64,000 nucleotides of DNA from an uncultured Bdellovibrionales bacterium (GTDB taxonomy: Bacteria > Patescibacteriota > Minisyncoccia > Moranbacterales > DUUL01). Position 1 is the stretch's first letter. The number at the start of each line of letters is the position of its first letter. The position numbers and the translations under genes are program-made. The notes under the pieces are model-generated. The model had not been told where the DNA came from and ran no database searches. It worked only from the letters and a program-made list of their open reading frames with translations. The stretch is taken from positions 10,541 through 74,540 of the forward strand of contig CAZKWX010000002.1 in NCBI GenBank assembly GCA_964556685.1. The letters are read 5' to 3'. Below are positions 37,133 to 39,811 of this stretch, piece after piece.

Positions 37133-37432
37133 TTTTGTTTTTATCGGTTATTTATATAATTATAAATAAATTTTAAAAAGTACGCAAGGAATATTTTTTT
37201 ATAACGAAATGTGTTGAATACTTGAATTATATGGGATATGACCTAAACTAAATAAATGGGATGATTGGGGATTATAAGCTATGAATTAAGATTTAAGAAT
37301 AAGTTTTTAAGAATGGAGAATATACGTAACTTTTGCCCCGTAAAATTTCGCTTAAGCGAAATCACGGGGTAAATATTATTGCTCACTCTGAAAAATCGCT
37401 TCGCTCATTCGGGGCAGGCATTGATCACTACT

Positions 37433-39811
37433 ATGAATAATATTAGAAACTTTTGTATTATTGCACATATTGATCATGGGAAGTCGACACTAGCCGATCG
37501 GCTTTTGGAGTTAACTGGGACGATGGAAAAACGGCAGATGAAGGAACAGGTTTTGGATACGATGGACTTGGAACAGGAGAGAGGCATCACTATCAAGCTC
37601 CAGCCTGTTACTATGACCTATCGGCCATCGCAGATCAATGCAGATGTAACGCGGATAAGTGCGGATAAAGAAAAAAGCAAAGTGGAGGGTGGCTTATTAT
37701 ATAAGGAGTTAACTTACAAAGTAAGAGGACTATTCTTTGACGTTTATAATAATCTGGGACCAGGGCACAAGGAAAGTGTTTACGGCAATGCTCTCGAAGA
37801 GGAATTTTTGAAAGCTAATCTTAGTTTTGATAAAGAAAAGATAATAGACATTTTATATGGGGACAAAAAGGTTGGCACCTATCGTCCAGACTTTGTTGTT
37901 AATGAAAAGATAATTATTGAATTGAAGGCTTTGCCTTTCATTGGCAAAGCAGAAAAAAAACAGACCTGGCATTATTTGAAGGGGTCTCAATATAGACTGG
38001 CACTTCTGGTCAATTTCGGCAAAACAGAATTACAAGTTGAAAGAATAATCTATGATGAAGCTCGTGATAAAAAAATCATCCGCAAAAATCAGCGTTCAAA
38101 TCTGCAAAAATACGCATATCAGCTCAATTTGATAGATACTCCAGGACATGTTGATTTTAGTTATGAAGTTTCACGATCACTAGCAGCAGTGGAAGGGGCG
38201 ATTCTTTTGGTTGATGCGACGCAGGGTGTGCAAGCTCAAACATTGGCTAATTTGTATCAGGCGATAGATCAGGGACTGACAATTATTTCAGTGGTGAACA
38301 AAATTGATCTTCCCAATGCAAATGTGGAAAAGACCAAGAAGGAAATAGTTAATATTCTGGATTACAAAGAAGAAGATGTCATCTGCGCATCTGGAAAAAC
38401 GGGTGAGGGAGCAGAGGAAATTTTGCAGGCGATTGTAGAAAGGATCCCATGCCCGCAATCGCCTTTGGCGAATGCGGGAATTTCCAAGTTACAAATTACA
38501 AGTTCCAAACAAAAACCAAATTCGAAGTCTGAAATTCAGAATTCTGAAAAAATGCCACTTCGTGCTTTGATTTTCGACAGTAAATATGATTCATACAAAG
38601 GCGTTTTAGCATATGTGCGAATTGTTGACGGGCAAGTGCAAGCAGAAGATGACATTTATTTGATGGCCGGCCAAAAAGATGCTCATGTAATCGAAGTGGG
38701 GAAGTTTTCACCAGAGCTGATAAAAAAAGACAAATTAAAAGCTGGTGATATTGGCTATATCGCCACTGGGCTCAAGTCAGTGGAACAGTGTAAAGTTGGA
38801 GACACCGTGACAATGATCAATGATCAATATTCAATATCCAATGAAAAAATAAAAGATAATAAGATCAAGCCGCTTCCGGGTTACAAGGAGGTTCGGCCGA
38901 TGGTCTATGCCAGTTTCTATCCCACTGAGGGAGAAGACTATAATCAATTTCGTGATGCGCTGAACAAATTGAAGCTCAATGATGCAGCGTTGGCTTTTGA
39001 AGGAGAAAGTTCGGTGGCTTTGGGAAGAGGATTTCGCATTGGATTTTTGGGACTGCTTCATTTAGAAATTATCAGGGAACGGCTATCGCGAGAGTTTGGT
39101 TTCGAGCCAGTGATCACAACTCCATCAGTGGTTTATGAAATAGAAAAATCAGATAAATCAACCGAGAAAATATTCTCCGCAGTGGAAATGCCGGATGCCA
39201 ATCACATCAAAAAAATCAAAGAGCCTTTTGTCAAATTGGACATCATCACTCCATCAGAATATATGGGCAAAGTGATGGAGCTGATTCAGGATACCACGCG
39301 GGCAAAATACATTGCCACGGAATACATCGACGATGATCGAGTCATGCTTTCCTATGATGCACCGCTCAGCGAAGTGATCATCAATCTTCACGATGGCATC
39401 AAATCGGCTTCTAGCGGGTTCGCTTCCTTTTCATATGAGTCGACTAAATATCGAGCTTCAGATCTAGTGCGGATGGATGTCTATGTGGCGGAAGAAAAAG
39501 TGGAAGCTTTTTCTCAGATTGTGCCCAAAGAAAATGTTACCAAGGAGGGAGCTCGAGTGGTCAGGAAACTCAAAGACGTGATTCCGCGGCAAAACTTTTT
39601 GGTCAAACTTCAAGCAGCGGTGGGTGGCAAGTTTGTGGCTCGGGAAAATATTTCGGCCTATCGAAAAGATGTGACGGCCAAACTCTATGGCGGCGATGTC
39701 ACTCGCAAGCGCAAGCTGTTGAAAAAACAAAAGAAAGGGAAGAAAAGGATGAAGGGGGCAGGAAAAGTGGATATTCCCCAAAAAGCATTTTTGGAGGTGC
39801 TGAAGAGATAG
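37433..39811 (+). CDS. lepA: elongation factor 4 (LepA) carrying a nested GxxExxY PD-(D/E)xK domain and a low-complexity insertion
   Basis: G1 is [11 protein letters not shown]3 is [10 protein letters not shown]. The C-terminus [23 protein letters not shown] is typical of LepA. The length is 792 aa versus about 600 for typical LepA. Confidence 0.93.
37622..38113 (+). other. in-frame GxxExxY-family (PD-(D/E)xK nuclease fold) domain nested between the G2 and G3 motifs of LepA
   Basis: [45 protein letters not shown]...[19 protein letters not shown]...[18 protein letters not shown]. It contains GxxExxY, PD and ExK motifs in the family-typical order. Confidence 0.8.
38481..38545. repeat. in-frame simple repeat (acaaattacaag / aaattc units) in lepA
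   Basis: tttccaagttacaaattacaagttccaaacaaaaaccaaattcgaagtctgaaattcagaattctg encodes [23 protein letters not shown]. Confidence 0.8.

Follow-up and report, generated by a model that had tools for sequence, protein, structure and literature searches.

An in-frame GxxExxY nuclease cassette with phased inverted arms in the G domain of a patescibacterial LepA: a probable selfish element kept in the mature protein

The window, which is the whole 64,000-nucleotide (64-kb) stretch of DNA analysed here, comes from a bacterium of the candidate phyla radiation (CPR, Patescibacteria) and contains a lepA (EF4) gene that houses a nuclease domain within its G domain. All features of the locus lie on the forward strand and are listed below in order of position.

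37433..39811, + strand: lepA (EF4), 792 codons plus stop, housing the insertion; matches TIGR01393
37433..37621, + strand: N-terminal piece of the LepA G domain, with P-loop AHIDHGKST, switch I RGITIK, and strand beta2 QPVTMTY (from the sequence)
37622..38110, + strand: whole in-frame insertion, 163 codons, aa 64-226, 489 bp (from alignment against insert-less LepAs and Pfam/NCBIfam), comprising left arm/linker, GxxExxY core, and right arm/linker in this order
37622..37693, + strand: left arm, translated as a linker; residues 67-86 have pLDDT < 50
37630..37666, + strand: left motif array, GCAGAT at 37630, GCAGAT at 37640, GCGGAT at 37651, GCGGAT at 37661
37694..38050, + strand: nuclease core of the GxxExxY / PDDEXK_3 family, aa 88-206, lacking start and stop codons of its own
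37772..37774, + strand: E114 codon, for the glutamate in GxxExxY; no variation across 30 LepA-nested copies and 56 family members
37889..37891, + strand: D153 codon, the D of the PD motif (YRPDF); invariant in the alignments
37919..37927, + strand: E163-L-K165 codons, the ExK motif (IIELKA); E and K invariant
38051..38110, + strand: right arm, translated as a linker; residues 210-226 have pLDDT < 50
38078..38105, + strand: right motif array, inverse of the left, ATCCGC at 38078, degenerate ATCAGC at 38089, ATCTGC at 38100
38111..39811, + strand: remainder of LepA, from strand beta3 (G3 motif) to the C-terminus (from the model strand and family matches)

The ORF ends at position 39811 and has candidate starts at 37379 (TTG) and 37433 (ATG, MNNIRNF), the latter being common to the window LepA and the insert-less homologue P0011. 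The protein scores 807.9 bits against TIGR01393 (cut-off 533.9). All LepA domains are found (GTP_EFTU, GTP_EFTU_D2, EFG_C, and LepA_C, the last with an E value of 2.9e-42), as are the G motifs, including NKID. Judged by its sequence, the ORF is a bona fide lepA. The same 792-residue protein is encoded on at least six contigs that were assembled independently and stem from different sequencing runs.

From ITIK to TPGH the window LepA spans 188 residues, compared with 25–32 residues in insert-less homologues, so that the extra piece amounts to about 163 residues. It sits between strands beta2 and beta3 of the G domain; in the AF2 model of LepA, strands at residues 57–63 and 229–235 lie on either side of it. 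A preliminary description of this DNA had proposed a GxxExxY (PD-(D/E)xK) domain nested seamlessly in frame in LepA at 37622–38113. Alignment to insert-less homologues gives 37622–38110, in agreement with that extent; the insert is in frame throughout, and the nested domain is full-length, matching its family profiles from end to end. At the junctions the window LepA reads RPSQ on the left and NLQK, followed by YAY of the host, on the right; the junction sequences are of low complexity and their residues vary among homologues. No recognisable target-site duplication is seen in the comparison of the window with P0011 or of P0008 with P0114. Because the host loop itself varies, exact insertion boundaries are not definable from such filled and empty pairs.

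Residues 91–204 of LepA match Pfam PDDEXK_3 (PF13366) over positions 1–116 of the 117-position profile (E 4.5e-31, 108.1 bits, cut-off 22) and NCBIfam TIGR04256 'GxxExxY' over positions 1–116 of 116 (E 1.3e-32, 112.6 bits, cut-off 35). The motifs quoted in the preliminary description, G-H-K-E-S-V-Y, YRPDFVV, IIELKA, and LLVNFG, are present in that order. No variation is seen at the catalytic E, D, and ExK residues, either in 30 LepA-nested copies or in 49 nested representatives from other hosts, and the E, D, E, and K are likewise invariant in 56 members of the GxxExxY family. Residues of this kind belong to the metal-dependent DNA-nuclease type, unlike the Y/H/K triad of splicing endonuclease. 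The core has the restriction-endonuclease-like (PD-(D/E)xK) fold, with Cas4, Dna2, and RecB-type nucleases as its closest folds; the catalytic domain of I-Bth0305I is also among the fold matches, the likeness being at superfamily level only. Structure prediction for the full protein yields a confident core between two linkers with pLDDT < 50, and both linkers are predicted to be disordered. A search for solved structures matching the insert by sequence found none, the PADLOC defence-system models gave no match, and PHROGs gave only a weak 'endonuclease' match. The function of the GxxExxY family is listed as 'Unknown' in a survey of the superfamily (PMC3424549).

The core is flanked by inverted arrays of GCRGAY, with the complement on the right, at a period of about 10.5 bp. 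These arrays, like the second LepA site and the multiplicity of hosts described below, go beyond the preliminary description. The left array, whose units are spaced by 10, 11, and 10 bp, is the sole phased motif cluster of its kind in the 64-kb window. Left and right arms together form an inverted repeat (I1), and the closing stem of the insert's minimum-free-energy fold is made by the arms. Complementarity between the two arms is present in all 16 nested loci, that is, the window and 15 others, with z values from -1.7 to -7.3. An arm alignment reveals tandem units of ACGCRGAY type, and arm autocorrelation peaks at lags 10, 21, and 31, peaks that are missing from control coding sequence. The arms match each other within a locus and differ in sequence from locus to locus. 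At the protein level, the pattern (Q/T)xNAD..RxxAD of the left linker and the peptides ..NPR/NQR..xSA of the right linker recur in homologues. Comparable inverted arrays flank 46 of 62 free-standing GxxExxY members from many phyla, and solo palindromes that lack an ORF and carry the same arm peptides occur in loci L003 and L013.

Such an insert is carried by 41 of the 120 closest LepA homologues (Patescibacteria), patchily, and 38 of the 39 inserts that could be located by alignment occupy the same site. The remaining one lies in domain II, in P0008; the corresponding site of its sister P0114 (82% nucleotide identity) is empty. The closest relatives of the window LepA are free of the insert, including its sister P0011 (77% identical). 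Host and insert identities are uncorrelated across LepAs (Mantel rho 0.11): hosts P0028 and P0050 are 89% identical and their inserts 53%, whereas hosts P0050 and P0090 are 57% identical and their inserts 84%. Several insert subtypes are found at the same LepA site. As with homing endonuclease genes, occurrence is sporadic at one conserved site and the phylogenies of element and host are incongruent, in trees that are simple neighbour-joining trees on short domains; unlike such genes, the nested copy lies outside any splicing intron or intein and not between genes. Gene conversion between copies could account for part of the incongruence, and selection for permissive sites, as opposed to target recognition, might explain why the same loops recur. 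A scan of JGI metagenomes gave no match to an empty allele of the window species. Two truncated lepA::GxxExxY products, P0121 and P0122, were set aside as uninformative candidates for an insert out of frame: one of their contigs is interrupted by an N gap, and the other seems to be a chimera or a rearrangement. Breaks or chimeric joins at these repeats affect some short related contigs from metagenomes: L001, and L002, which contains an N gap. In L001, a 23S_rRNA_IVP gene adjoins a lepA::GxxExxY fragment.

The nearest relatives of the insert are in frame, with similar flanks, in RecG, LeuRS, GatB, glycosyltransferases, transketolase, pilins, and other proteins; DHFR-like and RtcB-like proteins and pilin leaders likewise house it. 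A host census spans 44 families, among them glycosyltransferase group 1 (9), RecG (8), LepA (6), transketolase (3), GatB (2), GT2 (2), Wzy (2), and pilins (2). Inserts nested in LepA, RecG, LeuRS, and glycosyltransferases are mixed together within a single clade, and those of RecG share one common site. In a search of 185,579 genomes, the best 16 DNA-level matches (L003–L018) all lie in uninterrupted long ORFs and are in frame and stop-free across both junctions. Within the 64-kb window, tblastn of the insert gave no second copy, and no free-standing GxxExxY paralogue was found there. A search of phages in IMG/VR returned only 4 distant matches of about 30% identity.

We consider the lepA insert to be, quite probably, a selfish nuclease-encoding palindromic element that is kept in mature LepA; it is best read as neither a LepA-specific adaptation, nor an intein, nor an intron. 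The preliminary description had offered two possibilities, a selfish module that inserts in frame and a domesticated ribosome-associated nuclease. The many unrelated hosts, the patchy distribution in LepA, and the tree incongruence favour the former. The 489-bp segment would be one copy of a mobile cassette, in which the GxxExxY coding sequence lies between inverted arrays. Being in frame in the loop at the tip of the beta2–beta3 hairpin, it is read straight through by the ribosome. On the sequence, the homologues, and the structure model taken together, mature LepA should thus bear an independently folded nuclease domain on two flexible tethers, the tethers being the translated arms. The loop to which the insert is tethered varies in length among LepA homologues, which makes it probable that LepA still functions. 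Different Patescibacteria appear to have received the cassette on separate occasions in the same LepA loop, and it appears also to have entered permissive loops near conserved motifs of many other housekeeping proteins; from these sequence comparisons we infer that it is mobile. More speculatively, the nuclease may bind the helically phased arm motifs and make a DNA break by which the cassette is copied into an empty site, either through homing-like repair or through transposition. The arms would then be doubly used, as protein-binding DNA ends and as harmless hydrophilic protein linkers.

In its widest form, the proposal is of an unrecognised class of autonomous mobile element in Patescibacteria and possibly DPANN archaea: a PD-(D/E)xK cassette resident in essential genes, in frame, unspliced at the RNA and protein levels, and produced solely as a domain within the host protein, with phased arms that serve as nuclease-binding DNA ends and as disordered linkers. 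LepA, RecG, LeuRS, GatB, and others would then be chimeras with an active selfish nuclease. To this wider proposal we give a little less than an even chance.

Among the alternatives, an old and vertically inherited fossil that has often been lost, whose nuclease is kept since frame-disrupting decay would destroy LepA, is unlikely. It would be in keeping with the single copy in the window, the empty allele missing from the metagenome scan, the stability of the identical protein across six assemblies, and the want of start and stop codons in the nested copies. Against it, nearly identical hosts have very different inserts and distant hosts near-identical ones, several subtypes share one site, and the active site is more invariant than frame maintenance alone would need. 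We regard as distinctly improbable a LepA-specific domain, gained once as a ribosome-associated nuclease and kept for translation quality control. An RNase would find substrates on ribosomes, the site of LepA action, and the strict conservation of catalytic residues in all LepA-nested copies, with the frame kept, agrees with such a role; yet the same cassette with its flanks is found in RecG, LeuRS, GatB, DHFR-like and RtcB-like proteins, glycosyltransferases, transketolase, and pilin leaders, it is patchy in LepA with the closest relatives empty, insert and host trees are uncorrelated, and a second LepA site is used.

Two further alternatives have the insert removed, one from the RNA and one from the protein. 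In the first, the arms would pair in the mRNA, the segment would be excised and the exons rejoined, and mature LepA would be insert-free; the encoded PD-(D/E)xK domain could, for example, play the part of a tRNA-splicing endonuclease, with RtcB as its partner. We give this reading slightly less credence than domestication. Splicing would make it needless for the best 16 DNA-level matches to be in frame and stop-free at their junctions, and the catalytic residues are not those of a splicing endonuclease. Mismatches in the arms comprise 22 G.U on the sense strand versus 34 A.C; with no G.U excess, this test for selection on a stem in the sense RNA was negative. The 10.5-bp phasing points to duplex DNA, and an Rfam search over 37300–38400 on both strands gave no match at E <= 1 to introns or any other RNA family. 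It is very improbable that the insert is an intein of a new kind, taken out of the protein by splicing or by proteolytic cleavage at the linkers. Like an intein, the insert encodes a nuclease and lies in frame in conserved housekeeping proteins beside conserved motifs, but LepA has no Pfam match to the Hint/intein families at E <= 0.01, the junctions are low-complexity and variable among homologues, and neither a conserved junction Cys/Ser/Thr nor a terminal His-Asn is present, in line with the preliminary description, which had seen no intein hallmarks. An artefact of assembly or annotation, through a chimeric contig or a frameshift, can practically be dismissed. The related contigs broken at repeats (L001 and L002) show that such faults occur; the identical 792-residue product on at least six independent contigs and the dozens of homologues with the same architecture contradict it for the window, where neither chimera nor frameshift is found.

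No description of an in-frame GxxExxY cassette, in LepA or in other hosts, was found in the searchable literature, consistent with the preliminary description; fused proteins are nonetheless already in public databases, where some LepA are misnamed 'GxxExxY protein'. It is commonly assumed that a selfish element in an essential gene has to be removed from the product, through the splicing of an intron or an intein. To our knowledge, one exception alone is accepted, that of the palindromic elements of Rickettsia, which are tiny and encode no enzyme. The cassette would represent a third solution, in which a full nuclease gene resides in a surface loop on flexible tethers, sparing the host and relying on its translation signals. 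If so, some of the 'extra' sequence that makes CPR proteins puzzling would be accounted for, the large GxxExxY/PDDEXK_3 family would gain a testable role and candidate DNA sites (the GCRGAY arrays), annotation errors such as the misnamed LepA would be flagged, and LepA, RecG, LeuRS, and GatB would supply natural examples of permissive domain-insertion sites. It would also raise the question of whether a translation GTPase with an active nuclease has consequences for the ribosome.

The cassette has likenesses to several known systems. In CPR bacteria, stem-flanked rRNA inserts, some with small ORFs (23S_rRNA_IVP), are thought to have spread horizontally, and PDDEXK_3 is not reported among their ORFs (PMC11270868). 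These 23S rRNA intervening or insertion sequences are, like the cassette, stem-flanked inserts in essential genes of the same bacteria, but they are located in rRNA and removed from the RNA. Membership of GxxExxY in this group was dropped, none of 19 free-standing loci tested being in rRNA.

Inteins with a homing endonuclease resemble the cassette in being sporadic, in-frame, nuclease-encoding inserts that use the same site near conserved motifs and have a phylogeny incongruent with that of the host. Unlike them, the cassette has no Hint domain or junction nucleophiles and should stay in the mature protein; its nuclease is PD-(D/E)xK, not LAGLIDADG or HNH, and it has inverted arms at the DNA level. 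PD-(D/E)xK homing endonucleases exist, I-Ssp6803I of a group I intron being one, but they are encoded inside self-splicing introns, and no intron RNA was detected at the cassette. REP/RAYT systems likewise place a single enzyme gene between inverted copies of a short motif, with ORF-less palindromic doublets also elsewhere. The RAYT enzymes, however, are transposases of the HUH Y1 type, and REPs lie outside genes (REPtrons/REPINs); the cassette encodes a PD-(D/E)xK enzyme and is translated from within a gene.

RPEs are palindromic, lie in frame in unrelated genes, and are translated, apparently at structurally tolerant positions (PMC10969869). The cassette shares with RPEs and intragenic MITEs the terminal inverted repeats, the in-frame residence in unrelated ORFs, and the translation of an inverted-repeat element within the host protein. 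It differs from RPEs in being found in Patescibacteria, not in Rickettsia, and in having arms that are phased arrays of a 6–8-nt motif. Moreover, an RPE of about 150 bp adds a short peptide and no enzyme, whereas the cassette, in contrast to non-autonomous elements of the MITE/RPE kind, encodes a complete conserved nuclease domain.

The lepA gene lies in a + strand ORF that ends at 39811 and encodes 792 aa from the conserved ATG at 37433. Its product exceeds the cut-off of the NCBIfam equivalog TIGR01393 (807.9 bits; cut-off 533.9) and matches the Pfam domains GTP_EFTU, GTP_EFTU_D2, EFG_C, and LepA_C. The G domain also contains the GxxExxY domain of the PD-(D/E)xK fold claimed in the preliminary description, whose quoted motifs are found in the sequence: residues 91–204 match Pfam PDDEXK_3 (profile positions 1–116 of 117, E 4.5e-31) and TIGR04256 "GxxExxY" (positions 1–116 of 116, E 1.3e-32) at near full length. 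The stretch from ITIK to TPGH spans 188 residues in the window LepA and 25–32 in insert-less homologues. Therefore, the insertion comprises ~163 codons (37622–38110), as reported. At least six contigs, assembled independently from different runs, encode the identical 792-aa protein, which excludes an assembly chimera or frameshift.

Features of the insertion
Starts at 37630, 37640, 37651, and 37661: left array, GCAGAT, GCAGAT, GCGGAT, and GCGGAT
37694–38050, + strand: nuclease core, without a start or stop codon of its own
Starts at 38078, 38089, and 38100: right array, complementary to the left, ATCCGC, ATCAGC (degenerate), and ATCTGC
E114 (GxxE), D153 (PD), and E163/K165 (ExK): putative catalytic residues of the core

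The putative catalytic residues are invariant in 30 LepA-nested copies, 56 family members, and 49 nested copies of other hosts. In a structure model of the whole LepA (pLDDT 81.2), the core is predicted with confidence (84–92), segments 67–86 and 210–226 fall below 50, and the host strands bordering the insert (57–63 and 229–235) are β2 and β3 of the G domain. The model pictures the insert as a separate domain that two flexible tethers connect to the tip of a β-hairpin.

Both tethers are encoded by inverted repeats, which the first reading had missed. Besides the insert flanks, no further motif cluster of the arm type was found across the 64-kb window. In 16 nested loci (the window and 15 fetched loci), the left flank complements the right one more strongly than in shuffled controls (z −1.7 to −7.3), and the arms are built of tandem ACGCRGAY-like units. 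Autocorrelation of the arms has maxima at lags 10, 21, and 31; control coding sequence lacks this 10.5-bp period. Because a lag of 10 is not divisible by three, the periodicity is a property of the DNA and not of a peptide repeat. The period equals the helical repeat of B-DNA (10.5 bp), which suggests that the arms are candidate phased protein-binding sites. The motif varies by locus (GCGGAT, GCAGAA, GCAGAC, ACGGAT) and agrees inside each locus. The arms are able to close the RNA fold predicted for the insert; their mismatches show no excess of sense-strand G.U (22) over A.C (34), and hence nothing that points to selection for an mRNA stem.

The arm-derived peptides, ..(Q/T)xNAD..RxxAD.. and ..NPR/NQR..xSA.., border every nested copy and also occur at the ends of some free-standing proteins, such as P0123 (MNADKK...NQRESAK) and the ORF of locus L020. 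Significant inverted arrays of related motifs, spaced 10–11 bp (CACGAAT, CACGGAT, GCGGAT, and others), flank 46 of 62 free-standing GxxExxY genes (loci L019–L082) in many phyla, including Bacteroidota, Chloroflexota, Omnitrophota, and Planctomycetota. Therefore, the unit is apparently arm-ORF-arm. The arrays look like a general property of the GxxExxY family, of which we found no earlier report.

ORF-less "solo" palindromes, consisting of arm-type sequence only and translated in frame, are present in two other LepAs, in the domain II loop at locus L003 (ALNADLRGFSTRMGADDSIRDNQRMDQRASAF) and at the junction of the G domain and domain II at locus L013 (ARTYADGTPTNADQRLLRDSASSQRESAQ). Such palindromes may have derived from the cassette in the manner of MITEs, or may be its landing pads. 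The window lepA itself has another in-frame insert of low complexity (38470–38555, +), which is shorter and separates the G domain from domain II; its DNA is an imperfect palindrome (38478–38497 versus 38518–38537, 70% complementary). Similar inserts of the IQNSKFKIENS type occur in three loops of insert-less CPR LepAs (after reference positions 63, 180, and 276), and may represent a second family of in-frame palindromic mini-elements.

A DNA-level scan of 185,579 species (one genome each) with the LepA-insert profile returned 80 loci. The best 16 of these are 51–58% identical to the window insert and all lie within uninterrupted long ORFs. Their hosts, borne out by Pfam search, are LepA (same site), RecG (between helicase motif II, DEQHRFGV, and motif III, SATPIPR), LeuRS (directly N-terminal of the editing domain), and a membrane glycosyltransferase-like protein. 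The ORF of this last protein (L005 2909–5494) carries PDDEXK_3 nested twice, as separate modules that each have arm-derived linkers of their own. Lower in the 80-locus list, a glycosyltransferase with a nested GxxExxY (L021 63–806; arm variants TDNHG and PRKSV, ACGGAT-type) is on a contig binned as Pacearchaeota (DPANN); if the binning is right, the phenomenon reaches archaea. When 1.84 billion cluster representatives were searched exhaustively with phmmer, nearly all matches below E 1e-30 were long proteins. A Pfam census of 49 of these gave 44 families, including glycosyltransferase group 1 (9), RecG (8), LepA (6), transketolase C-terminal (3), GatB (2), GT2 (2), Wzy (2), and type IV pilin N-methyl motifs (2). 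A neighbour-joining tree places the nested copies in one clade, in which all hosts intermix and which is separate from most free-standing proteins.

Several further arrangements were observed. In the proteins P0252, P0254, and P0263, an N-terminal GxxExxY directly precedes the type IV pilin N-methylation motif (G|FTLxE); the domain is within the leader cut by prepilin peptidase, so the nuclease could be freed from the mature protein. Tandem double GxxExxY proteins of 250–280 aa also occur (P0223, P0237, P0247, and others; loci L051 and L075). One LeuRS with a nested GxxExxY (L010 1785–4019) contains a NUDIX domain inside the synthetase (residues 588–686), a further case of an unusual domain nested in a housekeeping enzyme of CPR bacteria. 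At locus L001 (1297–2601), the 5′ part of lepA with a nested GxxExxY is followed by a 23S_rRNA_IVP gene (four-helix bundle, PF05635) instead of the rest of lepA, and this gene is surrounded by AATTTAGAATTT-type repeats. The arrangement is either an assembly chimera at the repeats or a rearrangement, and gives a hint that IVP genes travel in repeat-flanked elements of a related kind.

The 120 best LepA homologues are without exception of Patescibacteria type. Among them the insert is patchy (PF13366 in 41); of the 39 inserts located by alignment, 38 occupy the same β2–β3 loop. The exception, P0008, has it in a domain II loop, a site that is empty in its sister P0114 (82% nucleotide identity outside the insert). 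P0011, the closest relative of the window LepA (77% identity), is also without the insert. From the comparisons of the window with P0011 and of P0008 with P0114, no exact boundaries or target-site duplication could be defined, and no empty allele of the window species was found in JGI metagenomes. In public databases, the full-length fusions P0008 and P0013 (HPN54949.1) are named merely "GxxExxY protein", which hides a translation factor from annotation-based surveys.

A single old acquisition followed by vertical descent does not fit these LepAs. A LepA tree that leaves out the insert mixes filled with empty genes, and sister hosts in it differ in the subtype of insert that they carry. Host and insert identities are nearly uncorrelated (Mantel rho 0.11, 666 pairs) and discordant in individual pairs of LepAs: for P0028 and P0050, identity is 89% between hosts and 53% between inserts, and for P0050 and P0090 it is 57% and 84%, respectively. 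The identities fit repeated invasion or replacement. The breadth of hosts is a strong argument against a domesticated function specific to LepA, such as the ribosome-associated nuclease offered previously as one of two alternatives. The other is favoured, and we infer that the cassette is a selfish mobile element. Excision at the RNA level is unlikely, because the reading frame consistently runs on across both junctions in several host sites that are independent of each other; the cassette would be translated within LepA and stay there.

Other identities were rejected. In accordance with the absence of intein hallmarks noted earlier, there is no Hint/intein domain and no conserved junction nucleophile. 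No known intron or other RNA element was matched in Rfam, the 19 free-standing loci checked for an IVS-like position are all outside rRNA, and PADLOC gave no match to a defence system. As far as the data go, a phage origin is also rejected, with no close relatives in IMG/VR.

The insertion points are variable loops a few codons from highly conserved motifs (LepA G2/G3; RecG motifs II/III; LeuRS TTRPDT; GatB and GT2 motifs). This is a known pattern of inteins and homing endonuclease genes, and would equally be expected from survival at permissive sites alone. Speculatively, the nuclease would recognise the phased arm motifs, its break would lead to copying of the cassette into empty sites, and the arms would double as hydrophilic, disordered linkers.

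The function of PDDEXK_3 is listed as unknown (PMC3424549), and a survey of CPR rRNA insertions mentions neither PDDEXK_3 nor insertions into protein genes (PMC11270868). Targeted literature searches found no description of the LepA insertion, in agreement with the preliminary description, or of nested GxxExxY domains. Nested proteins are already in public databases, some annotated only "GxxExxY protein".

Inteins are in frame and carry a nuclease like the cassette, but are spliced out, whereas the cassette has no Hint domain. PD-(D/E)xK homing endonucleases are intron-borne, whereas the cassette has no Rfam intron match. REP/RAYT units, like the cassette, place an enzyme gene (a transposase) between inverted short repeats, but outside genes, whereas the cassette is intragenic. 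Rickettsia palindromic elements are in-frame palindromes, as in the cassette, but without an enzyme (PMC10969869). The cassette joins features of all four of these nearest precedents and fails a defining feature of each, and it stands a substantial chance of meriting a separate class among selfish elements.
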